From: an uncultured Acidimicrobiaceae bacterium
Lineage (GTDB): Bacteria > Actinomycetota > Acidimicrobiia > Spongiisociales > UBA5794
Length of the DNA: 64,000 bases
Assembly (NCBI GenBank): GCA_964579415.1
Contig: CAZOGW010000002.1
Span: 14,612-78,611 of the forward strand
Direction of reading: 5' to 3'
How positions within the stretch are numbered: position 1 is the stretch's first letter; each line of letters begins with the position of its first letter. Below the pieces are notes generated by a model. It was not told where the DNA came from. It was given only the letters and a program-made list of their open reading frames with translations, and did not search any database. Below are positions 5,774 through 58,919 of the stretch, in pieces. Position numbers and translations under genes: made by a program.

Positions 5774-5960
5774 CGGCGCCGCTCCGGGTTCCGGGGACAA
5801 AGGGACGAAAGTCCCACTCGGAAGGTTCCACCTCCGGATCACTCGCGCATAGACTGCAAGCTCGGGTGGGGGCGTTGCGACACCCTACCTGGTGCGCCCT
5901 GGCGGGCACATCAACCAGAACTAAGAGGCCGCTCCCACGCGGCCACCAAGGAAGGCCACC

Positions 5961-9848: not shown

Positions 9849-9972
9849 CCTCGGCCCCGAGCGGCCTCCTTGCCGAAACACCGGACAGCACGGATCCGTG
9901 TGCCGGATCAGGGTTGGGGTTGCTTTCCAGCACCGGTACGGTGTCCATACCGATCGGGAGGACGATCGAAGC

Positions 9973-13249: not shown

Positions 13250-13410
13250 TTTCCGAATCCCCGTCCGTTCCCGGTAGGCCCCACCGCCCGTCGATGGCCG
13301 CATCCTATCGACGGGCCGTTCCGCGGTCGAGGCTCACACGCGCCACCGGCGAACCCGCTCATCCTCCGGCGACCCCGCCCGCAGGCAGGTGCCGGCGCCG
13401 ACCATGGCGC

Positions 13411-20961: not shown

Positions 20962-21029
20962 GCCGGGGAGTCTAAGTGGGCCGGAGCGACCGGCCCATCG
21001 CCACGGTGTGCCGTGTCGGGCCGATCACA

Positions 21030-23520: not shown

Positions 23521-23720
23521 GGCAATCCCCACTACCCGCCGGCCACCACGGCGCAGTCCTTGATGAAGCTGTCGGCTCGTCACCCAGGCGAGGCTAACCC
23601 AGGTGGCGATATAGGCGACTTCCTCGCGGGCAGGCCCGTGCCCGGAAGCGGTTACTCCACGATGCCCTCCCCTGCCACTACAATCCACCCGCCGCCGCCG
23701 GGCCATCCCCCGGGAGAACG

Positions 23721-29208: not shown

Positions 29209-29466
29209 CGCCTGGCGAGCCGTGACCTCGGTCTCGAGCCGGTCGATGCGACCGAGGACGTCCGCGGTGGACTGCTTCACCACCGCGTCGCCCCTGAGAC
29301 GCTTCCATAGCTCGCTCACGTTACGCGCCTTCCCGTCACACACCGCGATCCGGTACCCGGCCGAAACCCGGCCATCGGTGTAAGACGGCACCTTAGGACG
29401 TACGCGGATCGCGGTGACCCTAAAATGCCGGTCGCTCTTCTTCCCCCACCAGCGAGGTGCCGGTTC

Positions 29467-32400
29467 ATGACCGTCGGGTTTGTCGTCTGGAACCCGTTCC
29501 AGGTGTTCCACATGGGACCCATCGCCGAACACCTCGACGACGTCGTGTTCCTGGTCGTCAACCGGTGGGGCCTGGAAGAGTTGCGCGCCGGTTTCGGGGG
29601 CAGCGTCGGCGCCTTCATCGACCGTCCCCACCAGATCGTCACCACGCGTCAGCTCACGGCGCTCGACGGGAAGCTGGACGCCCTGGTCTGCCCGAACCCG
29701 TTTCCCGGGATGAACGCCCTGGCGGCGACCCGCCGCGTCGGGATCCAGTACTCGATGACCAAGGAGAGCTACCAGTACGGCACCTGGCGGTCGCAGTTCG
29801 ACGTGAACCTGGCCTACGGCGACTACACCGTGGGCAAGCTGCTCCGCTACGGCCCCGCCGTCGCCGTGGGGAACCCCCGGTTCGCTCCCTGGTTCAAGGG
29901 CGCTGACGAGCCGGCGCCGCCTTCGCCGCGCAAGACGGTCATCTACCTCCCCACCTGGGGCGAGTTCTCGTCGGTGCCCCGGTTCCTCCCCGCCATCGAG
30001 GCGCTGCAGGCCGACTACGAGGTCATCGTCAAGCTCCACCACAAGATCCACCTCACCGAACCGGACAAGACGGCGCAGCTGCAGTCGTCGGGCATCAAGA
30101 GCTCCTTCCTCCCCCACGACGATCTGCTGCCGCAGCTGCGCCGCGCCGACCTCGTCATCAGCGACTACAGCGGAGCGATCTTCGACGCCATCTACGTGCG
30201 GAAGCCGGTGCTGCTTCTCCAGGAGGACCCGGCGAGCCTCATCGGTGACAAGTTCACCTTCGACAGCATCGAGTACTCCCGGCGCGACGACATCGGCCCC
30301 GTGGTGGCGTCTCCCGCGCAACTGGCCGACACCGTCGCCGCCGTCCTGAATGGCTCGATCGACTACCGGGACGCCAACGAACGGCTCCGGGCCGAATGCT
30401 TCGCCGAAGACGTGCACGCCGCCGAACGGTGCGCCGAGGTGATCGACACCGTGGCGCACCAGCGCACGAACCCCCTCTCCCCCCGGTCCCACAGCAACAG
30501 ACCTGTGGTGGCGCCGGAGCGACCAGTGGAGCAACGCATCCTCCGCCTCGAGCAACAGCGCGCCGCCGGCGCCGGAACCTCGACCCCGGCCGGGGATGCA
30601 CAGGAGCACCTGCGGGCCCGGATGCGCCAGTCGGTCAGGGCGGCAGCGGGCGCCGCCGGCGCCGGCACGTTGCTGCCCGCCCTGGCGGCGGCACCCGGCC
30701 CTCACGGGAAAACGACCCGCCACCTGGCGGTCCGCACCGCACTGCGCGTCTCCGCCGACCCGTCCGTGGCCATCCGATCACTGGAGGCGTTGCAGCGTCG
30801 GGACCGGCTCGATACCGGGCAGCGGCTGTGGCTCGCCGACCTACTGTTCGTCACCGGCCGCGGCGACGAGGCGGCGCGGCTGGTCGAGGGGACAACCGGC
30901 ACCTCCGCCCCCGATCTCCTCAAGACGCTGGCCCGGGCCTACGAAACCCTGTCCGGCCCGGCGGCGAGTTGGAACACCCTCACCGGGTTGGTCTCGCCGG
31001 CGCCGGTTCCCGCCTCCAACAACGGGCTGCTGGCATCGACTCCCCTCTCCGTGGACGACATCCTGCGACGGGTGACTACCAACGCGGCGTCGATCGCCAC
31101 CGACTGCACCGAGTTCGAAACGGCGGCCGAGCTGTACGCCGAGTTGCTCAAGCTGGACGACGACGTGGCCGACCTCCACCACGGGTACGGAAAGGCGCTG
31201 GGCGGCGCCTTCCGGCTCGACGAGGCACGGCAGGCCTACGCCGAGGCGTTGCGGCGTGGCCCCTTCGTGGACACCTACCAGCGTTCCTACGCTTCCTCGT
31301 GCTCCAAGGCGGAGGACTGGGAGGGTGCACACCACGCCTGGCTGCGACCGCGCCGCGATCAGGTGCTGGACGCCAGCGCCGCCCTCGGCGCCGTGCGCCG
31401 GGAACGCACCGCCTTCGACACCCTCGATGCCGCCTTCACCGACCCTGTCGTGGTCTCCTCGCCGGCGTTCCGTGATGCTCTGGAGGACAGCGCCGCAGTG
31501 GCGCCGCTGCGCCCCGCCGAACAGTGGATGGCGCTGCACTGGCGGCTGATCCGGCTCGGAGCCTTCTCCGCCGCCTACCGGGTCAAGGACCTGGCGGCGT
31601 GGAGTCTCCTCGGCGACCTGTCACGCAGCAACGGCAACGATCCCCGCAGCACGGTGCGCCTGTCGCGGGCGCTCGTCACCGTGGGAGAGCACGACGAGGC
31701 GCGCCGGCTGCTCTCGTTGTGGCTCGCCGCCTCCACCGATGAGCCGGAAGGGCGCGCCGCCGTCACCAAGGCGCTGGCGGACCTCGACCTCCTCCAGGGG
31801 GAGACGTCGTCGATCGTGCGCTGGTTCGCCGCAGCCGCGGTCGATCGCTTCCCCCAGGACGAGGGCCGCCGCATCGCCCGGGACGTCTTCGAGGGGCGCC
31901 GCGTCGCCATCGTGGGCCCGGGTCGGCCGCCCGAGGGAGCCTCCCCCGACCGATTCGACGCCTACGACGTGGTGGTCCGACCCAACCTGTTCCTCGACGC
32001 CGCAACCGCCGCCGCCACCGGCTCGGAGCGCACCGACGTCGCCTACTTCAACAGCGGCATCACCCGGCTCGGACTGGACGACCTGCTCGACGTCGCTGCC
32101 GGCCAGGGGGTACGTCAGGTGGTGCTGAGGCGACCCCGCGACCTGGGCCTGCTCGCTCCCCGCCTGCGCTCGGGCAAGGTCCGTTTCGTCGACATCGAGC
32201 CGTCGTGCCACCTGTTCGCCTCCTCCTTCGGCATCCAGCGGATGTTGTACGACATCAACCTCTACCGGCCCCGCACCATCGACGTGTTCAACGTCGATTT
32301 CTTCGCCGGGGCGGTCGAGTACGTCGACGGCTACAAGATCGACAACGCCGACATCAGCTTCCGCGGGTACACCCATGACTTCCGTGGCGACTTCATCCTC

Positions 32401-32514
32401 TCGCGGAACCTGCGCGCCAGCGGTGCCGTCGGGTTCGACCCGGTGGCCGACGCCATCCTCGACCTCGACGTCGCCGCCTACCTGGAACTCCTCGACGCCA
32501 AGCCGTCGGAGTGA
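29467..32514 (+). CDS. 1015-aa fusion: N-terminal TagF/TagB-like CDP-glycerol glycerophosphotransferase-family domain, a helical repeat (TPR-like) middle, and a C-terminal domain with a sialyltransferase motif-L-like signature
   Basis: RBS gaggtg upstream. TagF-family: RKTVIYLPTWGEFSS (compare YAPTWR) and ...ADLVISDYSGAIFDA. C-terminal domain: RRVAIVGPGRPPEGASPDRFDAYDVVVRPN, resembling sialylmotif L / Cst-type GNGPSL...DVxRxN. See findings. Confidence 0.65.
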   Translation: MTVGFVVWNPFQVFHMGPIAEHLDDVVFLVVNRWGLEELRAGFGGSVGAFIDRPHQIVTTRQLTALDGKLDALVCPNPFPGMNALAATRRVGIQYSMTKESYQYGTWRSQFDVNLAYGDYTVGKLLRYGPAVAVGNPRFAPWFKGADEPAPPSPRKTVIYLPTWGEFSSVPRFLPAIEALQADYEVIVKLHHKIHLTEPDKTAQLQSSGIKSSFLPHDDLLPQLRRADLVISDYSGAIFDAIYVRKPVLLLQEDPASLIGDKFTFDSIEYSRRDDIGPVVASPAQLADTVAAVLNGSIDYRDANERLRAECFAEDVHAAERCAEVIDTVAHQRTNPLSPRSHSNRPVVAPERPVEQRILRLEQQRAAGAGTSTPAGDAQEHLRARMRQSVRAAAGAAGAGTLLPALAAAPGPHGKTTRHLAVRTALRVSADPSVAIRSLEALQRRDRLDTGQRLWLADLLFVTGRGDEAARLVEGTTGTSAPDLLKTLARAYETLSGPAASWNTLTGLVSPAPVPASNNGLLASTPLSVDDILRRVTTNAASIATDCTEFETAAELYAELLKLDDDVADLHHGYGKALGGAFRLDEARQAYAEALRRGPFVDTYQRSYASSCSKAEDWEGAHHAWLRPRRDQVLDASAALGAVRRERTAFDTLDAAFTDPVVVSSPAFRDALEDSAAVAPLRPAEQWMALHWRLIRLGAFSAAYRVKDLAAWSLLGDLSRSNGNDPRSTVRLSRALVTVGEHDEARRLLSLWLAASTDEPEGRAAVTKALADLDLLQGETSSIVRWFAAAAVDRFPQDEGRRIARDVFEGRRVAIVGPGRPPEGASPDRFDAYDVVVRPNLFLDAATAAATGSERTDVAYFNSGITRLGLDDLLDVAAGQGVRQVVLRRPRDLGLLAPRLRSGKVRFVDIEPSCHLFASSFGIQRMLYDINLYRPRTIDVFNVDFFAGAVEYVDGYKIDNADISFRGYTHDFRGDFILSRNLRASGAVGFDPVADAILDLDVAAYLELLDAKPSE

Positions 32515-32519
32515 CCCAC

Positions 32520-33707
32520 ATGGCGGTGTTGTGCGTCATACCTGCCCGCGGCGGATCCAAAGGTATCCCCGGGAAGAACCTGCGCCGGGTCGGTGGGTTG
32601 ACGCTGGTGGAGCGAGCGGTCCGGTCGGCGCTGGCGGCCGAGCGGGTCGACAGGGTGGTGGTCAGCACCGACGACACCGAGATCGCCGCCGCGGCTCGGC
32701 GCAGCGGGGCCGGGGTGGTGCACCGACCTGCCGATCTGGCCGCGGATACCTCCACCAGCGAGTCCGCCCTGGTCCACGCCGTCGGATCGGTGCTCGGCGA
32801 GCCGGGTGACGGCGACGTGCTGGTCTTCTTGCAGTGCACCAGCCCCCTCATCGATCCGGCGGACATCGACCGGGCTGTCGCCATGGTCACCGAGGGGGGC
32901 TACGACTCCGTCTTCTCGGCGGTTCGGTCCCATGCCTTCGTGTGGCGAGAGGAGGATGGCGGCGCCGTCGGGGTGAACCACGACTGGCGGGTGCGCCTGC
33001 GCCGCCAGGATCTGCCTGCGGAGTACCGCGAGACCGGTGCGGTCTACGTGATGCGTATCGCCGGCTTCCTCGAGAGCGGGCACCGGTTCTTCGGGCGTGT
33101 CGGCATCTGCGTCGTGTCCGCCACCCACGGTATCGACATCGACGCCGCCGAGGACCTGGAGATGGCTCGCTTCGTAGCCCGGCGGGCGGACCCGGGCCCC
33201 CTCGCCGGCCTGGACCCGTCGCGGGTGACGGCGATGATCACCGACTTCGACGGGGTCCACACCGACGATCGCGCCTGGGTGGCCCAGGACGGGCAGGAGG
33301 CGGTCAGGGTGAGCCGGTCCGACGGTCTCGGGTTGGCTGCGCTGCGTGACTCCGGGCTGGCCCTGCTCATCCTCTCCAAGGAGCGGAACCCGGTGGTGCG
33401 GGCGCGGGCCGGCAAGCTCGGGATCGAATGTTTGCAGGGGATCGACGATAAACTGGCGGCTCTCCGCCGGTGGGCCGAGGGCAGGGGTATCGACCCGGCA
33501 GGGATCGTGTTCGTCGGCAACGACAGCAACGACGTGCCGTGCCTCGAGTTCGTCGGATGGCCGGTGGTGGTCGCGGATGCCCACCACTCGGCCCACGCCA
33601 CCGGGGCGATGACGACGCGGCGGCGCGGCGGCGCCGGCGCGCTGCGGGAGATCGCAGACCGGCTGCTGGCCGGCCCGGGCCCCTACGGATGGCAGATCGA
33701 ACAGTGA
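32520..33707 (+). CDS. neuA: Acylneuraminate (nonulosonate) cytidylyltransferase fused to a C-terminal HAD-IIIA (KdsC-type) sugar-phosphate phosphatase
   Basis: N-terminal CMP-sugar synthetase motifs (VIPARGGSKGIPGKN...FLQCTSPL). C-terminal HAD motifs (DFDGVHTDD..., VGNDSNDVPCL). GTG 32511 is an alternative start overlapping the upstream stop. Confidence 0.8.
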   Translation: MAVLCVIPARGGSKGIPGKNLRRVGGLTLVERAVRSALAAERVDRVVVSTDDTEIAAAARRSGAGVVHRPADLAADTSTSESALVHAVGSVLGEPGDGDVLVFLQCTSPLIDPADIDRAVAMVTEGGYDSVFSAVRSHAFVWREEDGGAVGVNHDWRVRLRRQDLPAEYRETGAVYVMRIAGFLESGHRFFGRVGICVVSATHGIDIDAAEDLEMARFVARRADPGPLAGLDPSRVTAMITDFDGVHTDDRAWVAQDGQEAVRVSRSDGLGLAALRDSGLALLILSKERNPVVRARAGKLGIECLQGIDDKLAALRRWAEGRGIDPAGIVFVGNDSNDVPCLEFVGWPVVVADAHHSAHATGAMTTRRRGGAGALREIADRLLAGPGPYGWQIEQ

Positions 33708-33709
33708 GG

Positions 33710-34582
33710 ATGCAGATGAGCGTGATCGATGTCGGAGGACGCCCGGTCGGCGACGGTGAGCCTGTCTACGTCATCGCCGAGATCGGGATCAACCACAACG
33801 GCGACGTCGAGATCGCCAAGCAACTCATCGACGTCGCGGTGGAGGCCGGGTGCGACGCGGTGAAGTTCCAGAAGCGCACCCCCGAGATCTGCGTGCCGCT
33901 CGACCAGCGGGACAAGATGCGGGAGACGCCCTGGGGCGATATGACGTACCTGGCCTACAAGGAGCGCACCGAGTTCTGGGAGTCGGAGTACCGGCAGATC
34001 GACGAGCACGCCGCCGGCCTCGGTATCCAGTGGTTCGCCTCGCCGTGGGACGTGCCCTCGGTCGACTTCCTCGAAGGGTTCGGCGTACCCACCCACAAGG
34101 TGGCGTCGGCCAGCCTCACCGACGAGGCGCTACTCAAGGCGCTGGCGGCGACCGGCAAACCTCTCATCGTCTCCACCGGCATGTCGACGATCGACGAGAT
34201 CGACCGCGCCATGGAGTTGCTGGCGGGGTCGGATGTGGTCCTTCTCCACTCGACGTCGACGTACCCGTGCCCCCCCGAGGAATCCAACCTGAGGACCATC
34301 ACCACCCTCCGGGAGCGTTACCGCGTCCCGGTCGGCTACTCGGGCCACGAACGCGGGTTGCAGGTCACCCTGGGAGCGGTGGCGCTGGGAGCCGTCGCCG
34401 TCGAGCGCCACATCACCCTCGACCGGACCATGTGGGGATCGGACCATGCGGCCAGCGTCGAACCGCAGGGTTTGCGCCATCTGGTCCGCGACATCCGCAT
34501 CATCGAGACGGCGTTGGGTGACGGGGTCAAGCGGGTCTTCCCCGGCGAGGAGGAGCCGCGGCGGCGCCTCCGCTCGGCGTGA
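33710..34582 (+). CDS. neuB: NeuB-family nonulosonic acid synthase (TIM-barrel only, short form lacking the C-terminal SAF domain)
   Basis: VYVIAEIGINHNGD...AKxAG.DAVKFQKRT...LxSTGMSTIDEIDRAM...HSTSTYPCP. Start ATG 33710 is preceded by the gagga RBS, and its TGA overlaps the neuA stop. Confidence 0.85.
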   Translation: MQMSVIDVGGRPVGDGEPVYVIAEIGINHNGDVEIAKQLIDVAVEAGCDAVKFQKRTPEICVPLDQRDKMRETPWGDMTYLAYKERTEFWESEYRQIDEHAAGLGIQWFASPWDVPSVDFLEGFGVPTHKVASASLTDEALLKALAATGKPLIVSTGMSTIDEIDRAMELLAGSDVVLLHSTSTYPCPPEESNLRTITTLRERYRVPVGYSGHERGLQVTLGAVALGAVAVERHITLDRTMWGSDHAASVEPQGLRHLVRDIRIIETALGDGVKRVFPGEEEPRRRLRSA

Positions 34583-34592
34583 CGGTCGGCGC

Positions 34593-35327
34593 TCAGGAGA
34601 CCCGACGGAACATGAAGCTGGCGTAGTTGACGTCGGGGCGGATGTTGCGCACCTGCAACGGCTCGAACCCGGCCTCCCCGAGAAGCTGCCAGAACTCGTC
34701 GATGGCGTACGACGTGGCCGTGATGTAGTGAGATGCGTAGTCCCCGCTCTTGGGCAGGAACCGGGGATTGCCGTTGTCGTACCTGATCTGGATCAGGCCG
34801 AGCCCACCCGGCTTGGCGGCGCCGGAGAGGGCGTGCAGCACGGCCACGCCGTATTCCTTGCTGGGGAAGTGCTGGAAGACGGCGGTGCTCAACACGATGT
34901 CGAAGCTCTCCCGGTAGGGGGCCATGGCGTCGGCGGGAGCGCCGGTGAGGTGCACCCCGGTGAAGTCCCCGAAGCCGGCCTGCTCCGCCTGGGTGCGGCA
35001 CTCGTCGAGGTTCGGTCCCGAGATGTCGACGCCGACGTAGCGACGGGAGACGGGTGCCAGCGCCACCACGTTGCTACCCCCGCCGGGGCCCCACTCCAGG
35101 ACGGCCAGTCCCGCACCGGGAGCCAGGGGCGGTTGGGCGAGGCTGCGGCGGAACACGTCGAGTTCCCGCCTGACCCGGGTCCCGATGGCCAGCCAGGCGC
35201 GGTCGTCGGCGTAGCGCCCGAAGCCGCGCCAGTGGGAATGCTCCCGCTTCTTGTCGTCATGGGAGCTGCAGGCCCACACGTCGGCGGCGAGGCGCTGTTG
35301 TGCGATGAGGTCCGATTCCGATGTCAT
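34593..35327 (-). CDS. Class I SAM-dependent methyltransferase
   Basis: Motif I LAVLEWGPGGGSN and the later GGLGLIQI. About 244 aa; sits at the end of a minus-strand operon. Confidence 0.7.
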   Translation of the reverse strand: MTSESDLIAQQRLAADVWACSSHDDKKREHSHWRGFGRYADDRAWLAIGTRVRRELDVFRRSLAQPPLAPGAGLAVLEWGPGGGSNVVALAPVSRRYVGVDISGPNLDECRTQAEQAGFGDFTGVHLTGAPADAMAPYRESFDIVLSTAVFQHFPSKEYGVAVLHALSGAAKPGGLGLIQIRYDNGNPRFLPKSGDYASHYITATSYAIDEFWQLLGEAGFEPLQVRNIRPDVNYASFMFRRVS

Positions 35328-35346: not shown

Positions 35347-36210
35347 TCAGGTCGGGGGTACCGCCGACGAGAACCTGTTGGCGACCAGGGCCGCCATCTG
35401 CTCGTCGGGGAGATACCGCCGCGCCGCCTGGTGCCACAGCCCCTCCACCTTGGTGAGACGCCTGTCGTTGGCGGTGCGGGGGCGGGTCCACGGCTTCGAT
35501 CCGACGTAGTGGAGGAACCGGACGTCCCATCGCTCGATCTCCCCCTCCACCGATTCGAGCCTGTCGGGGAACATGCGCTTGGTGCTGTTGTAGCGGATCG
35601 GCAGCCAACGCACCCGGTAGGGGTAGAAGTAGAGGTTGAGTACCGCCTGGTCGGCCTTGCCGGTGTGGGGCCGGGCGTCGGCGAGCCGGGTCCGCGCCGT
35701 CAGGTCGTGGTAGGTGGCGCCGCCGAGGTAGCGCCGGCCCACCCGGAAGACGCCGGAGTTGAAGAACGGGAGCGGCTGCTGACCGCGGCGGGAAGCGGCC
35801 CGCACCGCGGCGAAACCGTCGTGGCCATCCGCCGGGTGCAGCAGCTCGGAGATGTCGCCCAGACACAACATGTCGGCGTCGAGGCACAACACCCGGTCGA
35901 ACTCGGTGAACCGGAACGCCTCAAGAATGAGGAACGCCGCCACCAGGTGTTGTGGCGTATCGAGGGCGGCGCGGCCCTGGGCCTGGAGGTGGGCCAGCGA
36001 CGGCGGCGATCCCTCGACGATGCGGAGTGACGGGTACCGGCGTCGCAGCAGGTCGGCGTTGGCCGCGGAGAGCCCGTTGTCGGGCGTGAGAACCAGCCAG
36101 GGTTCCTCGAGCCACGGGTTGTGCTCCAGCACCGTGGAGAGGAAGACGACGAAAGCGGGAACGAAATCGTCGGTGACCACGGTGACGATCGCCGCGCCCG
36201 GCGCCGTCAT
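35347..36210 (-). CDS. GT8-family (LgtC/glycogenin-like) retaining glycosyltransferase
   Basis: VTVVTDDFVPAFVVF... DxD context VLCLDADMLCLGDISELL; FNSGVFR; and the HYVGSKPW tail. Start at MTAPGAAIV with a 4-nt overlap with the upstream gene. Confidence 0.75.
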   Translation of the reverse strand: MTAPGAAIVTVVTDDFVPAFVVFLSTVLEHNPWLEEPWLVLTPDNGLSAANADLLRRRYPSLRIVEGSPPSLAHLQAQGRAALDTPQHLVAAFLILEAFRFTEFDRVLCLDADMLCLGDISELLHPADGHDGFAAVRAASRRGQQPLPFFNSGVFRVGRRYLGGATYHDLTARTRLADARPHTGKADQAVLNLYFYPYRVRWLPIRYNSTKRMFPDRLESVEGEIERWDVRFLHYVGSKPWTRPRTANDRRLTKVEGLWHQAARRYLPDEQMAALVANRFSSAVPPT

Positions 36211-36971
36211 GCGACCAGCTCTTCGAACACGGCCCGCTCGAACACCCCAGGGCCGCCTCCGGCAGTGGCGTCGAGCAGCCGGATCCCCTCGGTCTCCATC
36301 TCGGACTTCACCACCCGGTAGCTCTGCAGCAGCGGCGCATCGTCGCCGGCGCCATCGCACCCGAGGAGCACGATCTCACCGAAGCCCATCAGGCGGGCCA
36401 GCACCAGGGCGAAGGTCGTCACGGTGTCGTGGGCGTCATCGAGCGGCTGTGCCGGGTCGAGGTTCATCGTCCCCCGCTCCTCGACCCGGAGTCTGGGATC
36501 GTCGAAGAGAAGGAAACGCACCTCGGAGAGGGGGAAGAGACTCTCGGCGTGCAGCAGCGAACGGAACCGGAAGGGAAAGAACTTGGTCACGCCGCCGGTC
36601 CGCTCCCCCAACAGCGTCGCCAGCTCGGCATCGAGTCGGGGTTCGGGGTTCCCCCAGCCCCCGAACAGCTCGTGGCCGGCGCCGCAGTAATAGGTGGGCT
36701 TCCATCGATCGAGTGCCGGGTGGCGGACCACCCAATCGGTGCCGAAGGCGGGCGTGTCCCCGATGAGCGACAGGTCCTGGGTCAGCAGCGACGGCCCGCC
36801 GGCGATGACGAAACACCGCTCACCGGCATGGCTGTTGCGGAGCTGCTCGATGCGGTCCAGCTCACCGCTCTCCCCGTAGGCGCGGCTGAGCCGGCGGCGC
36901 TGCAGCATCTGGCGATCCGACAGGCCCTGGAGGGAGTCTGCGAGCGCGGGCATGCCGGAGGGTGAGGTCAC
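36207..36971 (-). CDS. DUF115 / MptE-like (Maf, motility-accessory-factor-like) protein; candidate nonulosonic-acid transferase
   Basis: CFVIAGGPSL motif (compare Cst-II VIIAGNGPSL) followed by LLGCDGAGDD. Translationally coupled to the GT8 gene. Confidence 0.55.
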   Translation of the reverse strand: MTSPSGMPALADSLQGLSDRQMLQRRRLSRAYGESGELDRIEQLRNSHAGERCFVIAGGPSLLTQDLSLIGDTPAFGTDWVVRHPALDRWKPTYYCGAGHELFGGWGNPEPRLDAELATLLGERTGGVTKFFPFRFRSLLHAESLFPLSEVRFLLFDDPRLRVEERGTMNLDPAQPLDDAHDTVTTFALVLARLMGFGEIVLLGCDGAGDDAPLLQSYRVVKSEMETEGIRLLDATAGGGPGVFERAVFEELVA

Positions 36972-37495
36972 CGCCGTCCCCGGGCGCCACCCCTGCGGAG
37001 GCGCCGGGGGACGTCGAGGATGCGCGCCATCCGCCGGCCGAGCCGGTAGCTCCGGGAGGCACGGATGGCGTCGAGCTCGGACTGACGTAGTCGCGCCTGC
37101 TCCCGGGCCTGGCGCAGGCGGCGGCGTGAGCGGGCGAGTTGCTGCGTCAGCTCCTCGGTCTGGATGCGTGCCTCGTCTTCGATCTCGTCGATGCGCGCCC
37201 AGAAGAGGTCGACGTGCCCTTCCAGTCGCAAGACTTCGCCTTCGACGGCGCCCAGCGTCCGTGCCGAGGCCTCCAGCTTCGCCTCGAGCTCCGCATTGGC
37301 GGCGGTCAGCTCAGTCACCCGCCGCGCAGCGGCTTCGCCGGCCTCGATGAGTTCAGCGATCTGCCGACGCAGGTCCCGGATCTCCCGTTCCGCCTCGGCA
37401 GCTGCGGCGACGTCCGCCGCCGTCGCCACGTGGACCCTCTCTTCGGGACCGTCGTCATGAGCCATCGCAGCCGTTCTGTCGTGTGGTAGCGCCAC
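36968..37495 (-). CDS. Small coiled-coil protein (hypothetical)
   Basis: Continuous heptad-like Ala/Glu/Arg-rich helix (EREIRDLRRQIAELIEAGEAAARRVTELTAANAELEAKLE...); no enzymatic motifs. A 4-nt overlap with the downstream gene supports expression. Confidence 0.45.
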   Translation of the reverse strand: MALPHDRTAAMAHDDGPEERVHVATAADVAAAAEAEREIRDLRRQIAELIEAGEAAARRVTELTAANAELEAKLEASARTLGAVEGEVLRLEGHVDLFWARIDEIEDEARIQTEELTQQLARSRRRLRQAREQARLRQSELDAIRASRSYRLGRRMARILDVPRRLRRGGARGRR

Positions 37496-37663: not shown

Positions 37664-38599
37664 ATGATGCGGTGCCCGGTATGTGGCCGGTTGACCCGCT
37701 CGCGGAGCTATCCCTTCCTCAACGTGGGCCGGCACCGGCATCCGACCTTCGACGGCCGGCACCTGTCGGCCTGCTCCCGGTGCGACTCGATGTGGTGCAC
37801 CGACGCGCCCACCAACGGCGAGCTGGGCGACTACTACGCCACCAGCTACGTCCCGGCGAGAATGGGCGAGGCCGACAAGGACACCTGGCCCATCTGGGAT
37901 ACCCGGGCGTACTCGCAGATCATGCTGGCTCGCCTCTTCGTCGACTGGGCACCGGGAGACCTGTTCGTCGACGTGGGCCCGGGCAACGGTGCCGCCCTCT
38001 CCGTGGCGCCGCTGCTGCTGCGGGACGCCCACCTCGGATGTGTCGAGTTCAATCCCCACGCCATCGAGTTCTTCCGCCGCCACGTTCCCGACATCACGGT
38101 CACCGAGTCGATCGAGGAGTTCGCCCCGGGTTCGGCCAAGATGGTCTACAGCGCCCACAGCCTCGAGCACTACCGCCCCGGCGACGCCTTCGACGGTCTG
38201 CGCGGCATCGCCCGGGCCCTGGCGCCGGGCGGTGTCCTGGCGCTGGAGGTGCCGTGGGCCCCATCGGCCCGTACCATCGCCGCCGGACGCCACACCCCCC
38301 ATCTGTTGTTCTTCTCGCCCCAGGGCCTGCAGCGCCTGCTCACACGTGCCGGTTTCGAGGTGGTGTTGTGGTTCACCTCGCGGGGACGGCGCGGCAACCG
38401 TGACGCGGTGGCGGACCACCCGGTTCCCCCGGACCTCGGTCGTGGCCTCGCCGCCCGCCTCTCCACCTTTGTCACCGGCGACCTGATGGCCTCGGTCCCC
38501 CGCGACGGCCAGCCCATCAAAGGTGTCATCAAGGTCGTGGCCGTCAACGGCGGGCGCCGCCTGATCGGCGGTCAGGCAGATGCCAGCAGGATGCGGTAG
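37664..38599 (+). CDS. Class I SAM-dependent methyltransferase with an N-terminal Cys4 zinc-ribbon
   Basis: CPVCG...CSRCDSMWC zinc ribbon; motif I LFVDVGPGNGAAL; post-II GGVLALEVP. Its 3' end overlaps the convergent ADH gene by 28 nt. Confidence 0.7.
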   Translation: MMRCPVCGRLTRSRSYPFLNVGRHRHPTFDGRHLSACSRCDSMWCTDAPTNGELGDYYATSYVPARMGEADKDTWPIWDTRAYSQIMLARLFVDWAPGDLFVDVGPGNGAALSVAPLLLRDAHLGCVEFNPHAIEFFRRHVPDITVTESIEEFAPGSAKMVYSAHSLEHYRPGDAFDGLRGIARALAPGGVLALEVPWAPSARTIAAGRHTPHLLFFSPQGLQRLLTRAGFEVVLWFTSRGRRGNRDAVADHPVPPDLGRGLAARLSTFVTGDLMASVPRDGQPIKGVIKVVAVNGGRRLIGGQADASRMR

Positions 38600-39726
38600 A
38601 GGGCATCGTCCCCGTAGCGGACAGGGTTGTTGCCGAGGCGCTCGACGTTGACCGACTCCGCCAGCCTGCGCAGGCCGGGCTCGTCGCCGATACCCACCTC
38701 TCCCAGCGACGCCGGAAGGTCGATCTCCCGCAGCAGGGCGTTGAATCGTTCCCGGGCGGTGCCTTCCGCAGCGGCTCCAAGCCGGGACCTGATCTCCTCC
38801 ATCACGGAGAGGTGGGTGGCCCGATCGACGGTGGCCTGGAGATCGGCGGGGTCGGCAGCGGAGTGGGCGTCGATGAAGGCGCCCAGCGTCAGTGCCACCG
38901 CGCTGCCATGGTTGACGCCGTAGCCCTTGGTGATGGCGTACGACAGGGCGTGGGCCGCCGTGGTCCTCGACACGTCGATGGCCTTGCCGGCGAGGTGGCT
39001 GCCGATGCTCATGGCGCGCGCCGAGTCGATGTCGGGTCGGTTAACAAAGGTCTCGATGGCGGGGAGGAGCAGGTCGAGGGCACGCCGGGCGCGGCGGCGG
39101 CTCCACGGCGAAGCGGCCGCCGCCCACAGGCTCTCGACCGCCTGGCACACTGCGTCGATGCCGGAGGTGGCCCGCTGGTGCGCCGAGCCGCTCATGGCGA
39201 GCCGGGGGTCGAGGACGATGTGGTCGGCGTACATCCCCGGCCCGGCGATGGAGAACTTCTCCTCACCGGAGTAGACGACGGCGAAGTGGGTGGCCTCGCT
39301 CCCCGAGCCGCTCGTGGTCGGCACCAGCACCAGCGAGCGGTCGCGGGAGGCGATCGTGCCACCTTCCCGGATGGTCGCTTCGAGCCGGTGCGTCGCCGTG
39401 GATCCGTAACCACACAGCAGCTTGGCCATGTCCATGGCGCTGCCTCCGCCGACACCCAGCACCAGGTCCGGCTCCCACTCGGCGGCCAGGGCCAGCCCCA
39501 CTGCCAGGTCGGCGGCGTCGGTGTTGGGGGCGAAGTCGCTCCAGCGGTGCACCTCGGCGACCGCCTCCAGCCCGGGCAACATGGCGGCGGCGCCGCTGGC
39601 CTCGAACGAGCGTCGCCCGCACACCAGCATGATCCGCCGTGCCTGCAGCGCCCGGGCGATCCCGGGAACATCGCCGGCGGCGCCGTCGCCGTAACTGGTT
39701 GGCACCTTGCGGGCCGGTTCCTTCAC
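38572..39726 (-). CDS. Iron-containing (group III) alcohol dehydrogenase; predicted phosphonoacetaldehyde reductase (PhpC/FomC-like)
   Basis: Fe-ADH family motifs (GGGSAMDMAK, GxxHxxxH-type metal region AHALSYAITKGYGVNHG). Translationally coupled (ATGA-type overlap) to the phosphonopyruvate decarboxylase gene. Confidence 0.7.
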   Translation of the reverse strand: MKEPARKVPTSYGDGAAGDVPGIARALQARRIMLVCGRRSFEASGAAAMLPGLEAVAEVHRWSDFAPNTDAADLAVGLALAAEWEPDLVLGVGGGSAMDMAKLLCGYGSTATHRLEATIREGGTIASRDRSLVLVPTTSGSGSEATHFAVVYSGEEKFSIAGPGMYADHIVLDPRLAMSGSAHQRATSGIDAVCQAVESLWAAAASPWSRRRARRALDLLLPAIETFVNRPDIDSARAMSIGSHLAGKAIDVSRTTAAHALSYAITKGYGVNHGSAVALTLGAFIDAHSAADPADLQATVDRATHLSVMEEIRSRLGAAAEGTARERFNALLREIDLPASLGEVGIGDEPGLRRLAESVNVERLGNNPVRYGDDALYRILLASA

Positions 39727-40859
39727 GGCGCCGGCTCGGCGAGCGCCTTCATGAAGGCTGCCTTGGAGTCGGCGGGTGAGCGGGTGGGGCGGCCCAGGTC
39801 GGAACGATGCCCGGGGCGGACCACCAGTTCCAGGAGGCTCGGCCCGCCACCGCGGCGCATCTCCGCCACGTTGCGTTCCAGGTCCGTCACCCCGGTCAGC
39901 GACCGCGCCCAGCGGTACCCGGCGGCGATGCCGAGCGCGGGCACGTCCACGACGTCGATCGACGTCGGCTGGCCGCCGACGCTGTCATGGACCCCGTTGT
40001 TGAACACGACGTGGAAGTAGTTGGCCGGGGCGTGATCTGCGATGACGGCGAGGCTGCCCATGTGCATGAGCAGCGCACCATCGCCGTCGAGGCACCACAC
40101 CTCGCGGTCCGGTTCGTCGAGGGCGACGCCGAGGGCGATCGAGGAGGCGTGGCCCATGCCGCCGACGGTGAGGAAGTCGAGAGCGCGGTCCTCCCCGGCG
40201 CCGCTGCGCAGCTCGAACAGCTCCCGGCTCAGCATCCCGGTGGTGGACACGATGACGGCATCGTCGCCCAACAACCCGACCAGAGCGCCCAGCGCCTCCT
40301 CCCGGGTGGGTACCGCGGCGTCGGGCGACGGGTCGACGGGCACGACCGGTGCGAAGGTCCCCTTCTCCACCAGGAGGACGAAGGGCCCGCTGCGCTCCTC
40401 GGCGAGCCGGACCGCTTCGGCCACGACCTGGGCCGCATCCTCCGGCTCCCGGGGCAGCACCGACCACGGCAGGTCCATGCCGTCCAGCATCGACGTCATG
40501 ACCCGTCCCTGCTTGACGTGCTGCGGCTCGTCCTTGACGCCGGGCTGGCCCCGCCAGCCGATCACCAGGAGCATGGGGACGCCGTAGACGTCGGGGTCGG
40601 CCAGCGACAGCAGCGGGTTCACCGTGTTCCCGGTCCCCGAGTTCTGCAGGTAGACGGCGGCAGGGCGGCCGGTGCGCAGGTAGTGGCCGATGGCGATGCC
40701 GACCGAGCCGCCCTCGTTGGCGGCGATGACGTGTCGCGAGCGGGGTAGCTCCGCCATGACGTGCCGCCCCAGTTCCTTGAGCAGGCTGTCGGGCACCCCG
40801 GTGAAGAACGTGATCCCCTGCGCTTCGAGCCAGGCGACGAAGTCCTCCGCTCGGATCAT
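39723..40859 (-). CDS. ppd: Phosphonopyruvate decarboxylase (TPP-dependent)
   Basis: 378 aa with a TPP pyrimidine-binding N-domain and a C-domain carrying the GDG(X)n NN-like motif ([17 protein letters not shown]...FNNG). Start [12 protein letters not shown] at 40859 overlaps the ppm stop by 4 nt. The annotated upstream extension to 41825 is a shadow frame. Confidence 0.8.
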
Positions 40860-42166
40860 GTGGCGTTCTCCGGGACGATGGTGAGCACCTCGGAGATGGG
40901 GGCGATCATCTGGTCGGCTTCGAGGGAGCGGCCGTGGGTGAGAACGCTCTCGGCGACGCGTCGCATCTGCGGGTAGGCGGCACGGAGCATGTGGTTGGCG
41001 TAGATCACGATGCGCACGCCGGCATCGGCCAGCTCGGCCTCGGTGACCTGGTTGTACGACGTGGGCACGGCGACGATGGGGACCTGCTTGGCGAACTTGG
41101 CGGCATGGGCGCAGAACTCGAACACCTCTTCGGGATCCCTGCGCCGGCTGTGGATCATGATCCCGTCGGCGCCGGCATCGACGTAGGCTTCGGCCCGCTC
41201 GACGGCGTCGTCGACTCCCTTGTCGAGGATCAGGCTCTCGATACGGGCGATCACCATGAAGTCGGAGGTGATCTGCGACTGCTTGCCGATGGCGATGCGG
41301 CCGCAGAAGTCCTCGATGGAGGACTGGGTCTGGGTGACGTCGGTACCGAAGAGCGAGTTGCGCTTGAGGCCTTCCTTGTCCTCGATGATCACCGCCGACA
41401 CTCCGAGGCGCTCCAGGGAGCGCACCGTGAAGGCGAAGTGCTCCGGCTTGCCGCCGGTGTCGCCGTCGAAGATGAGGGGCTTGGTGGTGACCTCGAACAA
41501 TTCGTTCACCATCTGCAGCCGGGAGCTGATGTCCACCGCCTCGATGTCGGGTTTGCCCCGGGAGGTGGAATCGGTCAGCGAGCTGGACCACATCCCGTCG
41601 AATTCGACGGTCCTCCCGTCGCGCTCCACCTGGGCGTTCTCGACGATGAGCCCGGACAGCCCGCTGTGGGCCTCCATGATGCGCACCACCGGCTTGTTGG
41701 CCAGCAGGCGCCCCAGGCGCGCCAGGCGGACGTTGGGTGTGGTCCCCACCTGTTTGATGGCGGCGTTGAGCTGGGTCGAGGAGATGCCCTCCGTGTAGGG
41801 GACCTCCACCAACTCCCCTCCCCACTCCGCCAGGGCGTCGATGACCCGCTGGCGGGTGTCCCGCTGCACGCCGCTGCGCCAGTCGTCTCCGTGCACCACG
41901 AAGTCGGGGCGGAGGCGCTGCAGGTTGGGGACGTAGTCCAGAGTCTCCTGGGCCACCACCACGGTCACGCCCTTGAGGTTCTCCACCACCGCCCGGCGCT
42001 GCTCGTAGGTCATGTGCGGCAGCCGCTTGTAGCCGGAGATGGCCCGGTCGGTGAGCAGGCCGACGGTGACGTCGCCGATCTCGGCGGCGCGTCGGAGGAT
42101 GTTGATGTGGCCGGGGTGGATGAGGTCGGCGCTCATGCCCACGTACACGCTGGGGCGGGTTGACAT
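40856..42166 (-). CDS. ppm: Bifunctional phosphonate cytidylyltransferase (PntC-like HxGH nucleotidyltransferase) fused to phosphoenolpyruvate phosphomutase (Ppm)
   Basis: N-terminal approximately 140 aa: [15 protein letters not shown] (HxGH) plus an RISSTQ-like region [10 protein letters not shown], i.e. the GlpT/TagD-type cytidylyltransferase fold. C-terminal PEP mutase: [16 protein letters not shown]...VIIEDK...IARIES. Start at ATG 42166 ([10 protein letters not shown]); the 746-aa annotated ORF upstream of this is a shadow frame. Confidence 0.85.
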
Positions 42167-42195: not shown

Positions 42196-44964
42196 TCAGG
42201 TGATCTCGAACGGGGAGGGGATCGGGTAGAGGGAATCGAGGAGCGAACGAACCACCGCCGCCTGGCGGGCGTGGTCGATGTCGGTGTGGAGGGTGGCGTT
42301 GAGGCAGAAGTACGTCGGCCGCCGCGACACGATGTCGTGGACTCGCCGCGCCATGTCGGCCCGACCGGTGTCGAGATACACGTAGGCGCCGGACGGCTGC
42401 GGCCACTCCACCGCGGCGCCGGTGGCGACGCCGTAGAAGTGGGCGAACATGCTGGGGATGGCCAGGTCGGTGGCCGACCTGAACCGGGCGGCCCTGGTGC
42501 GGGTGTACTCCTCCGGGTAGCGGCGTTCCATCTCCTCCAGCACGGAGCGGCGCAGGGCGTGGGGGATGTGCTGGACCTTGCGGTCGAAGCGGATGCCGAA
42601 GTCCCGGGCGATGATGTCGGAGGCGTTGTAGGCGGCCCAGTCGGTGGGGATCGCGTCGGGACCCGGTCGCCCCTCGTAGATGTACTGGGTGGGGGCGAAC
42701 CGCACCTTGCTCAACCCGGCACGGGTGAAGAAGTCGTCGACGGTCACCTCCCGGCCCAGGAACACGTCGTCGTTGAAGTAGAGGAAGTGCTCTGCGACGC
42801 CGGGTACCCGGTGCAGGTTGGCCTCGATGGCCTGCGAGTTGAAGGTGGGCAGCACCGACGGGTCGGGGAAGACGTCCCGGTGGGATACCACCGAGATGCG
42901 CTCGTCGGAGGTGTCCAGCCAGGCCGGCACCTGGTCGGCGGTCACCAGGTGGATGTGGCGGACGAACGGGGCGTACATCCACACCGACCGCAGCGAGTAG
43001 CGCAGCTCGTCGCGGTCGATGAAACGCTCGGCGTTGTCGGCGCTGGTGAGCGAGGTTCCACCCGCACCGCTGTGGGCGGCATGGGCGCGGCGCCATTCCG
43101 GGTCGGCCGGGTCGACCCAGGTGTAGACGACGTCGACCTCGCCGACGGTGTGGTGGCGGCCGACGGAGCTCACCGGCCGGGTCGGGGGCGGTGCCCCCTC
43201 CAGCAGCTCGGGGAACTCTGCCGTCCAGTCGACTCGGGCGGCGCGTGGCTCCACTGTGATGACCCGCTGCTTGGCGGGAACCGGCGCCACGAACATCACC
43301 CCGAGGCCCTGCACGCGGGCGGCGCCCTGCGGGAGACCGCCCGGGGCCGGCCCGACGGCGATCGATCGGGCCGGGAAGAGGTCCTCGAAGGTGACGGTGC
43401 CCATACCGACCATGCGGGACCTGCGGTCGCCCCCCGCCAGGTGAACCACCAGCCCCGGGTAGTCCCGGCCCACCGCCACCAACACGTCACCGAGCATGCG
43501 CTTGTCCCGCTCGGCCACGGCGCACAGCGGCCTGCCGTCGACCTCGGCGACGGCAAAGGCGAGCCCGGCCTCTTTGGCCGCCGTGGCGAGGACGGCGGCC
43601 AGCGCACGGCGTTGCCGGTCCGGGGTGGCGCCGAGGGCCTTCACCACGGGAGGCACGGCGGGCGGCCTCGGAGAGGCGGCGCCGTCCGCCGCGGTGCCGG
43701 CTGCGGGCGTGCCGTCCGCCAGCTCGTCGACCTCCCGCTTGCGGGCCACCTGCAGGATGTCGTGCCACGTCTTGAGCAGCCGCGCCTCGATGCGGGGGTA
43801 GCGAGTCATGGTAAGGCGGGCGCGCTGCTTGGCGCGAAGGGTGACGTCGCCGATGCCTTTGGGCCGGCCGGCACGGAGGCGGCTGTTCTGCCGGGAGAGG
43901 TGGCGATTCTCCGTCTCGAGGCGGCGGTTGCGCCCCATCAGCTCCCTGGTGCGTGCCCGCACCTGCCAGCGGGCGAAGTCGTAGGGTTCGCCGTTGTCGA
44001 TCAGATCGACGATGGCGTCGGCGCACGCTCTCCCTGCCGTCCCGTGGTTGACGAAGAAGCGGTCGACGAAGCCGCGGTAGGCGGCGTCATCGGCGAGCCG
44101 GCTGCGGGCCTCGGCGACGGCATCGTCGAGGGGGCGGCCCGACTCCCACACCACGCCGAGGCCGGCCAGGTGGGAACGGTCGATGTCGGCGGCGGAGAGC
44201 CGGTGGTAGTCCTCCGCCTCGGGATCGGCGTCGCCCACCAGGACCAGCGGCCGCCGGGCGTAGAGGGCATCGAAGGCGGCGCCGGAGAAGTCGGTGATGA
44301 CGAAGTCGGCGGCGCCGATCAGTTCGGCGGGCGAACGGTCGGCGCCGACCAGGCTGCAGTTGGGGGGAAGGATTCCGGCGGCGCGGGGGTCTTCGGCGTG
44401 GTGGAGTTTCACGCTGATCTCGACGGGGAGGCCGGAGAGGCGGCGGCCCACCGCCTCCAGCGAGGACAGCGACCCGTAGGTGGGCAGGTAGAGGCCCTTC
44501 GCCGATCCGCCCTGTGGCGCAGGCGGCAGTCCCCCGGCGAGAAGCTCGTCGAACAGGGGGTTGCCCACGGCCCGGGCGTGGGCGAACCCGGCAACCCGGT
44601 CCACCGAGTACGGCCCGTACATGAGATTGGCGTTGGCCAGGGAGCGCCACACGCCGTACTGGTAGGTCTCCTTGCCCAGGCTGTACTGCTGCGCAACCAC
44701 CAGCGACCGCTCCAGGAGGGCGTTGGGGAGGACCGGCGTCTGGCACACGATCACATCGAAACGGCCGTCGAGGGTCCGCAGATGCTGCTTGGGGACCCAT
44801 TCCACGGTGGCGGCGGGCAGGTGTGCCCGGATGAAGGCCTCATCGACCTCGAAGTCACGGTCGCGCGTCTCAATGACGAACGTCGACGCCCCCAGCGCGG
44901 CCGCGATGGGTCGGTAATGGTGGACCTGATACCGGTTGGTGATGAGGAATGCGATACGTGTCAT
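42196..44964 (-). CDS. Fusion of a TagF-like glycerophosphotransferase-family domain, a coiled-coil linker, and a C-terminal Stealth (CR1-CR4) hexose-1-phosphotransferase domain
   Basis: TagF-like: [13 protein letters not shown]...[14 protein letters not shown]. Stealth CR1-CR4: [46 protein letters not shown]...[32 protein letters not shown]. Confidence 0.8.
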
Positions 44965-58860: not shown

Positions 58861-58919
58861 CGGTACTCTCCTCGACGACGCAGCGGGGAGGGGCTCGCTG
58901 CGACACGAAGGGGTCCCGC

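Follow-up and report, generated by a model that had tools for sequence, protein, structure and literature searches.

A lid-less, GT42-like domain protein coupled to a GT8 glycosyltransferase in an Acidimicrobiaceae glycopolymer locus, and its possible role as a non-catalytic partner

The stretch of DNA considered here, referred to as the window, comprises 64,000 nucleotides of an uncultured Acidimicrobiaceae bacterium (contig CAZOGW010000002.1 of assembly GCA_964579415.1, positions 14,612 to 78,611) with a GC content of 70%, and the gene in question, hereafter the target, is the open reading frame (ORF) at positions 36207-36971 of its minus strand. The target starts with GTG and encodes 254 amino acids, of which residues 53-62 form the motif CFVIAGGPSL (36786-36815, minus strand). 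An initial annotation had described it as a DUF115/MptE-like, Maf-like protein coupled to a GT8 glycosyltransferase, and as a second candidate nonulosonate transferase of the locus; the reading frame, its motif and the 4-nt overlap with the GT8 gene are borne out. The GC content at codon positions 1, 2 and 3 (0.72, 0.47 and 0.87), judged against the genes of the window, gives a coding signature in the target frame only, and the third-position value (GC3) equals that of the neighbouring genes. Two independent read-set assemblies both encode this 254-residue protein without a difference, which rules out an artefact of assembly.

The target is the second gene of a minus-strand operon of four, which encodes, in this order, a coiled-coil protein (36968-37495), the target, a GT8 glycosyltransferase (35347-36210) and a methyltransferase dependent on S-adenosylmethionine (SAM; 34593-35327). 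Its GTG start overlaps the stop codon of the coiled-coil ORF in the sequence GTGA (36968-36971), and its own stop overlaps the ATG of the GT8 gene in the sequence ATGA (36207-36210), which is, as far as sequence can tell, an arrangement of translational coupling. The coiled-coil protein, 175 residues long from its GTG or 153 according to the gene caller, has only coiled-coil-type matches in Pfam and NCBIfam. The GT8 protein (287 residues; PF01501, 43 bits) is a retaining glycosyltransferase with an intact DxD motif (DAD, residues 111-113) and the motif HYVGSKPW, and its matches in the PDB are GlyE and AgtA. The methyltransferase gene starts 19 nt past the GT8 stop with its own ribosome-binding site (GAGGTGGAG). 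Scans for promoters, terminators and tRNAs found nothing.

The family assignment of the target depends on its relatives. Searched against the target itself, the MptE-like/DUF115 model PF01973 gives 24.5 bits (E 2.6e-5), below its gathering threshold of 34.6 bits, and the match covers residues 183-208 only, leaving out the GGPSL motif. Five close homologues reach the threshold (P0010, 37.9 bits; P0011, 38.9; P0012, 37.8; P0036, 36.9; P0014, 34.6), so that the target belongs to PF01973 by transitive homology only. Full HMMER, run over 1.84 billion cluster representatives with a cut-off of E<=1e-3, yields 2306 relatives (best E 2.8e-51), all of which align through CFVIAGGPSL, and the motif is therefore homologous and not a chance likeness. 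Of these, 38 representatives lie between E 2.8e-51 and 1e-30, with identities to the target of 38-46% among the best; its nearest relative is 42-46% identical, and the target forms a singleton cluster. NCBIfam has no match for it, a phmmer search of the PDB with the single protein returns nothing relevant, and a word-indexed search of 5.8 billion proteins finds the target itself only.

A profile of the target and 22 relatives, here called A1, connects the family with solved structures. Its best match in the PDB is Cst-II (E 4e-4; profile positions 48-225 on Cst-II residues 3-170), in an alignment that pairs GNGPSL, CNQF, GYKEIYLSGIDFY and SSYAFD; the other matches are the Pasteurella sialyltransferase 9C08, the Maf protein 5MU5 (E 4e-3), the MptE protein 8SD5 (E 0.017) and Cst-I. 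A comparison of the family with Cst-II by hhalign gives a probability of 92% and covers the N-terminal motif only (35 columns). With the A1 alignment as input, AlphaFold2 (AF2) produces a confident model (pLDDT 92.5, pTM 0.90), whereas the model from the single sequence is unusable (pLDDT 39). The best PDB matches of the former in Foldseek are ST8SiaIII and 9C08, with a probability of 1.0 and a TM-score of only ~0.4. The likeness of the target to GT42 enzymes is thus a weak one, at the level of the superfamily. Taken together, homologues, profile matches and model place the target in the MptE-like/GT42 sialyltransferase-like superfamily, closer to Cst-II than to Maf or MptE. The DUF115/MptE-like label therefore holds for the superfamily and not as a direct hit of the target, and the label Maf-like has to be dropped, as the target is a bare Cst-II-like domain and not a three-domain Maf.

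Two motifs of the target, AGGPSL (residues 57-62) and LLGCD (residues 202-206), have aligned counterparts in both the family and Cst-II, CFVIAGGPSL standing opposite IIAGNGPSL of Cst-II and the family consensus GNGPS. What is missing lies right after GCD, where the family HMM alignment leaves the target 3 residues and its relatives a median of 36. The junction, GCDGAGDDA (residues 204-212; 36336-36362, minus strand), replaces a segment of about 35 residues that reads DY...YFYD..H..T...L.R.W in the relatives. In the 39 nearest of these, the positions of the segment are near-invariant (Y206 in 36, Y217 in 34, F218 in 35, Y219 in 36, H224 in 36, R236 in 30, W238 in 36 and G242 in 36). In the A1 HMMER alignment, on which the mapping rests since hhalign aligned the N-terminal part only, Y206 pairs with Tyr156 of Cst-II (GIDFY) and Y217 with Tyr162 (SSYAFD). 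For Cst-II past residue 173 we rely on what we take to be its sequence, the length of which agrees with the HMMER numbering at residue 206. In length and position, the missing stretch appears to be the Cst-II lid, up to His188. The AF2 model agrees with this, since the strand IVLLG (199-203) leads straight to the helix that comes next (212-227), as it would in a fold that merely lacks the lid. In Cst-II, His188 is the catalytic base, and the lid becomes ordered upon CMP binding (PMC4202792), while a part in assisting the oxocarbenium-like transition state has been proposed for Tyr156 and Tyr162 (bioRxiv 10.1101/2023.08.01.551455).

Two further positions are altered in the target. Gly58 occupies the place of the Asn in the family GNGPS (Asn9 of Cst-II), which is Asn in 120 of the 150 representatives and Gly in the target only. 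Asp79, in the pair Thr78-Asp79 (36735-36740, minus strand) aligned with Cys30-Asn31 of Cst-II (CNQF), stands in the column of the TNWF Asn, which is Asn in 134 of 150. Asn9 and Asn31 are presumably donor-site residues of Cst-II; a literature look-up gave nothing usable on their roles. Of the 19 conserved core positions, the target otherwise retains 16, GPS and GCD among them, and the loss of three is within the normal range. The conserved-residue alignment thus confirms AGGPSL and GCD and departs from Cst-II at the Asn9 and Asn31 equivalents and the lid, and these three changes argue against an ordinary CMP-nonulosonate transferase. Whether the GT8 partner could supply lid residues in trans, through its stretch YFYPYRVRW, was also considered and rejected, as, by eye, the GT8 domains of P0020 and P0040 do not share the stretch.

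Full-length domains without a lid are rare in the family, amounting to five of the 150 representatives (the target, P0020, P0040, P0053 and copy 1 of P0051). All five have Asp in the Asn31 column, compared with none of 139 lid-bearing domains (131 N, 7 S, 1 K). Four of the five have a tie to GT8, by fusion or by gene coupling: P0020 consists of tetratricopeptide (TPR) repeats, the lid-less domain and GT8; P0040 of GT8, a coiled coil and the lid-less domain; P0053 of a coiled region and the lid-less domain, with a 4-nt overlap between its gene and a GT8 gene. The target corresponds to the same parts (coil, lid-less domain and GT8), split over three coupled genes. The others keep fewer core positions (12 of 19 in P0020, 12 in P0040 and 9 in P0053) and have lost the GPS loop, the Asp of the GxD motif or both; in P0020 the loop is destroyed (GSACS). 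A single origin of the lid-less domains is unsupported by neighbour joining (13 of 60 bootstraps). Copy 1 of P0051 sits in another subfamily, with the protein's own lid-bearing copy 2 among its nearest relatives, so that the loss of the lid together with the Asn-to-Asp change arose at least twice.

P0051 (1172 residues) is a natural paired example of both states, with a lid-less, Asp-type copy at 1-215 and a lid-bearing, Asn-type copy at 880-1135, 36% identical to each other and flanking a central region of about 650 residues. The P0053 gene comes from a high-GC genome (loci L087 and L088; GCA_900109245.1 and GCA_000759715.1; 10001-12342 in L087) and encodes a strongly degenerate domain; the pair that it forms with GT8 sits between a nusA-infB-truB operon and proS, and neither NeuA nor NeuB is found within 10 kb. 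Neither a profile built from the lid-less domains (A2) nor one from their N-terminal halves (A3) finds MptE, Maf or a significant sialyltransferase match in the PDB. Asp79 as a sign of an MptE-like kinase state is therefore without support, as neither profile retrieves MptE. A scan of metagenomes with A2 gave one partial locus, and the word-indexed protein search with A1 and A2 gave only 12 and 7 proteins, missing known lid-less relatives.

The coupling to GT8 noticed initially is a conserved feature of the family, in which the two are adjacent or fused. In the closest genomic relatives, namely a Rhodobacteraceae (L003), a Verrucomicrobiota (L004), a metagenome assembly (L005) and a Sphingomonadaceae (L007) locus, a GT8 gene adjoins the domain, adjacent downstream, and three of these four also have NeuB and a NeuA-HAD fusion like that of the window. 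A GT8 domain homologous to that of the window is part of the same polypeptide in 27 of the 149 other best representatives, in either order; a coiled-coil linker is often present, as between the two domains of the fused homologues P0040 and P0014. These gene fusions indicate that the GT42-like domain and GT8 work together. Some fused relatives also carry a sulfotransferase-like domain, which in the window is encoded by a separate gene (27598-29319, minus strand; PF00685, weak); in P0014, P0031 and the L004 protein (5489-7831 in its locus), a domain homologous to it precedes the GT42-like domain as an N-terminal fusion. The sulfotransferase-like protein probably belongs to the same functional unit as the GT42-like domain.

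Across 80 genome loci that encode relatives, counted within the fetched flanks, a NeuA-like gene is present in 53 (within 3 kb in 38 and within 400 nt in 14, and on the same strand in 49 of the 53) and NeuB in 15. On this evidence, intact members of the family appear to add the nonulosonate, as one half of a two-enzyme unit for the synthesis of hexose-nonulosonate glycans. In the window, the corresponding genes lie 1.6-3.7 kb from the target on the plus strand: a NeuA-like cytidylyltransferase fused to a HAD domain resembling KdsC and KDN-9-P phosphatase (32511-33707), and a NeuB-family ulosonate synthase (33716-34582; PF03102, 272 bits), the start of which is uncertain within the ORF 33470-34582. 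The NeuB protein is short (about 288 residues), lacks the C-terminal SAF domain and scores below the NeuB and PseI equivalog cut-offs, and no NeuC, Pse or Leg amino-sugar genes are found among the window genes scanned. The short NeuB, the type of HAD domain and the lack of these genes suggest that the nonulosonate of the window is of the Kdn type, made via a phosphorylated intermediate. In Streptomyces coelicolor, the main wall polymer consists of galactose-Kdn teichulosonic acids that carry some methylation (PMC7831098), which makes such a polymer a plausible analogue for the product of a high-GC locus with GT8 and methyltransferases.

Based on these observations, the target may well be a structurally intact, catalytically compromised GT42-like subunit that partners GT8 and the coiled-coil protein, rather than a second nonulosonate transferase, a reading that we hold with middling confidence. 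Ordinary members of the family probably transfer a nonulosonic acid from its CMP form, beside a GT8 hexosyltransferase encoded by an adjacent gene or fused to them. With the lid of about 35 residues, the window copy would have lost donor closure and the counterparts of Tyr156, Tyr162 and His188, in addition to the changes of Asn9 to Gly and Asn31 to Asp, and it would no longer be a stand-alone nonulosonate transferase. Instead, it could serve as a non-catalytic subunit, possibly still nucleotide-binding, in a complex with the coiled-coil protein and the intact GT8, in which it may contribute scaffolding, oligomerisation or acceptor positioning. That the lid-less domains of P0020, P0040 and P0053 have decayed further and yet are kept with GT8 counts in favour of such a partner. 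The nonulosonate itself would be made by NeuB and NeuA-HAD and transferred by a TagF-like/TPR protein, the gene of which is coupled to neuA.

Several points weigh against this reading. Most core motifs are kept in the target (GGPS, GCD and NAT.GG); it could still bind a CMP-sugar, with another residue, for instance Asp79, His100 or Glu101, perhaps taking the part of the base. Nor is it established which His is catalytic in the family itself, His224 being present in 68 of 150 domains overall and conserved in the nearest subfamily. The Asn-to-Asp change, found with lid loss in five of five cases and with at least two origins, suggests a directed shift of function rather than mere decay. It is gene coupling and fusions, and these only, that point to a complex with GT8. 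Moreover, we know of no TagF-like enzyme that uses a CMP-nonulosonate, and no experimental study of the target family or of proteins combining GT8 and GT42-like domains was found in the searchable literature.

The TagF-like/TPR protein (29425-32514, plus strand; Glyphos_transf, PF04464, 29.3 bits, plus TPR repeats) had been taken, at 29467-32514, for a sialyltransferase-like protein and hence for the other of two independent nonulosonate transferases. Pfam assigns it to no known sialyltransferase family, and it has no sequence match in the PDB; with this protein TagF-like and the target lid-less, the count of two is not borne out. Its gene overlaps neuA by 4 nt. The P0020 locus (L083 and L084; Logan SRR28388794 and SRR33696503), from an unrelated organism with 57% GC, holds PEP mutase, the protein of TPR repeats, lid-less domain and GT8, a TPR protein, a TagF-like protein, NeuA and NeuB; the PEP mutase is 69% and the TagF-like protein 44% identical to that of the window. 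The 80 lid-bearing loci, with only two weak matches between them, have essentially no TagF-like genes. Thus, where a lid-less domain occurs with NeuA and NeuB, as in the window and L083, a TagF-like protein is found in the neuA-neuB operon. By this pattern the TagF-like protein is a likelier CMP-dependent nonulosonate transferase than the target, and it could also handle a CMP-phosphonate from the neighbouring PEP mutase (Ppm) module. The L083-type gene set looks like a conserved multi-gene system that is undescribed.

The phosphonate module lies at 38572-42166 on the minus strand and consists of a cytidylyltransferase-PEP mutase fusion (40856-42166; PEP_mutase equivalog, 415 bits), a phosphonopyruvate decarboxylase (Ppd; 39723-40850) and a phosphonate-type iron-dependent alcohol dehydrogenase (Fe-ADH; 38572-39726). 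Its gene content suggests CMP-2-hydroxyethylphosphonate (CMP-HEP) for decorating a surface glycan. A TPR and LicD-family protein (11189-13333, minus strand) is a conventional candidate for phosphonate- or phosphocholine-type transfer from a CMP or CDP donor.

Among the alternatives, that of an active CMP-nonulosonate (Kdn- or sialic-type) transferase survives best, though we regard it as unlikely. The coupled GT8 would add the hexose, and an altered machinery, with Asp79 as base or a metal site, would stand in for the lid tyrosines. The association of the family with NeuA-like (53 of 80 loci) and NeuB genes, the clusters of NeuB, NeuA-HAD and GT8 around the closest relatives, and the 16 of 19 core positions kept in the target, including GPS and GCD, are in line with this, and the recurrent Asn-to-Asp change could compensate for the lid. 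An Asp is the catalytic base in GT80 sialyltransferases. However, the entire lid with its near-invariant Tyr/Tyr/His/Arg/Trp is gone, and the Asn9 and Asn31 equivalents are altered. Other lid-less domains have lost the nucleotide loop or the GxD Asp and are still kept with GT8, the P0053 pair has no NeuA or NeuB within 10 kb, and the lid-less profile detects no PDB sialyltransferase.

A more speculative proposal, which we consider rather improbable, is that lid loss with Asn31-to-Asp is not decay but a recurrent, convergent switch to a new job, always done together with a GT8, in the conserved nonulosonate-phosphonate-TagF-like system, either new catalysis (for example metal-assisted transfer, or the use of a CMP-phosphonate donor) or a regulatory or processivity subunit of GT8 polymerases. 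Less probable still is a neofunctionalised enzyme, in which lid loss and the Asn-to-Asp change would have created a new activity: it might, for example, pass 2-hydroxyethylphosphonate from CMP-HEP to the product of GT8, or carry out an MptE-type, metal-dependent phosphotransfer. The perfect covariation of Asp and lid loss with at least two independent origins would fit, as would the fact that two of the four lid-less contexts (the window and L083) adjoin PEP mutase, with the full set of Ppm, Ppd and Fe-ADH in the window; MptE kinases also share the fold (PF01973; 8SD5 matched by A1). On the other hand, P0020, in the Ppm-linked L083, has GSACS in place of the GPS loop, which makes nucleotide binding doubtful, and no Ppm occurs in the contexts of P0053 and P0040. 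The lid-less profiles do not retrieve MptE, and the LicD-family and TagF-like proteins are more conventional candidates for phosphonyl or phosphoryl transfer.

The target could also be a functionless, decaying remnant that stayed in the operon once the TagF-like enzyme had taken its place, which seems improbable to a slightly greater degree. The lid and two donor-site Asn are lost, and close orthologues are missing (nearest 42-46% identical, singleton cluster). Nevertheless, the frame of 254 codons is intact with a GC3 of 0.87 like that of its neighbours, there are 4-nt overlaps on both sides, the predicted fold is compact and of high confidence, and lid-less domains persist as GT8 fusions in unrelated lineages. 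With 16 of 19 core positions kept as well, the gene is alive and not a wreck. Lastly, a true Maf-type flagellin glycosyltransferase or MptE pterin pyrophosphokinase, to which the weak PF01973 match and the A1 matches to 5MU5 and 8SD5 could point, is effectively refuted by architecture and context and has next to no probability, given the better match to Cst-II, the single domain of 254 residues and a glycopolymer biosynthesis locus with no flagellar or folate/pterin genes among the scanned genes of the 64 kb.

Further genes of the window are in keeping with such a locus: GT2, GT4, GT8, Stealth, TagF-like, ABC transporter, Bac_transf, Rml, NeuA/B and phosphonate genes are all present. Two tandem Stealth (hexose-1-phosphate transferase) proteins are encoded on the minus strand (42196-44964 and 45076-46785); a tblastn search with the first also matched the L083 TagF-like gene (137 bits), and a TagF-like domain missed by Pfam may lie within its long N-terminal part. 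Two very large multidomain glycosyltransferases, one with methyltransferase and GT2 domains (23721-27482, plus strand; 1253 residues) and one with GT2 and Glyco_trans_1_2 (17956-21024, minus strand; about 1022 residues), may polymerise further polymers of the locus. There are also four proteins with numerous RTX calcium-binding repeats (9730-11154, 21124-23706, 48634-49929 and 58743-60371), two of them fused to polysaccharide deacetylase and one to peptidase M15 and FG-GAP; such a concentration of RTX enzymes around a glycopolymer locus is unusual in a high-GC genome.

For annotation, the target is a case in which a GxGPSL hallmark and a weak DUF115 match would mislead to a second nonulosonate transferase where the catalytic part is gone. 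If the favoured reading of a compromised subunit is true, the TagF-like protein is left as the single likely nonulosonate transferase of the locus, and the glycan predicted for the locus changes accordingly. More broadly, the analysis outlines a large unstudied GT42-like family paired with GT8, whose members are likely builders of hexose-nonulosonate polymers, for example Kdn teichulosonic acids. The rare lid-less subtype, with its perfectly correlated Asn-to-Asp change and at least two origins, offers a test case for pseudo-enzyme formation or a switch of function in glycosyltransferases, and the occurrence of the lid-less-GT8 unit with PEP mutase, NeuA/NeuB and a TagF-like protein in two unrelated genomes provides a gene set for studying phosphonate-bearing acidic surface polymers.

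The closest structural reference for the family is the GT42 alpha-2,3/2,8-sialyltransferase pair Cst-II and Cst-I of Campylobacter jejuni (1RO7, 2DRJ and 2P2V), with Cst-II the best solved-structure match of the family profile over about 170 residues. The family shares with Cst-II the (A/G)GxGPSL loop, a strand followed by an Asn motif (CNQF in Cst-II, TNWF in the family) and the segment GYKEIYLSGID, which is GFxEIYLLGCD in the family; both the target and Cst-II are single-domain proteins of about 250-290 residues, and the AF2 fold of the target is of the sialyltransferase type. They differ in the lid (155-188, with Tyr156, Tyr162 and the base His188, which is His202 in Cst-I) and in Asn9 and Asn31, all absent from the target, and their identity is very low. 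The target locus, with GT8, NeuB, a TagF-like protein, phosphonate genes and high GC, is also unlike the lipooligosaccharide (LOS) locus of Cst-II.

The PF01973 domain of Maf proteins is a modified GT-A fold, Cst-II-like in its donor site (PMC11339370; bioRxiv 10.1101/2020.06.03.131540), and the Maf protein of M. magneticum (5MU5) belongs to the same superfamily as the target family, matched by A1 around the GxD strand. Maf proteins have N-terminal, central and C-terminal domains (PMC11339370), and 5MU5 is 666 residues long. The acceptor of Maf proteins is flagellin, and their genes lie in flagellar loci. In contrast, the target corresponds to the central domain only, with a sub-threshold PF01973 match and no lid, and no flagellar genes are found among the genes scanned across the 64 kb.

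Nearer in architecture are the multidomain proteins with GT8 and GT42-like domains (P0005, P0010, P0011, P0014, P0026, P0036 and others), in which the GT42-like domain is 38-46% identical to the target and the GT8 domain is homologous to that of the window. The same parts are encoded in the window as separate coupled genes, whereas most of these relatives are single polypeptides, and they keep the lid (Y...YFY...H...R.W) and the Asn residues.

In logic, the intact family resembles the capsule polymerases of Neisseria meningitidis serogroups W and Y, which are bifunctional hexosyl- and sialyltransferases (GT4 and GT97): one protein that unites a retaining hexosyltransferase with an inverting sialyltransferase would make an alternating polymer. 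The likeness ends there, as GT4/GT97 and GT8/GT42-like domains are unrelated and the domain on the nonulosonate side appears compromised in the window. The galactose-Kdn teichulosonic acid of Streptomyces is an example of an alternating hexose-nonulosonate polymer (PMC7831098).

For the role proposed here for the target, there is a precedent in the streptococcal O-GlcNAc transferase GtfA-GtfB, in which GtfB is a non-catalytic partner with a GT fold. As proposed for the target, GtfB is a degenerate GT-fold protein kept to support an active glycosyltransferase encoded alongside; unlike the target, it has a GT-B fold, and the partnership of the target with GT8 is a proposed one.

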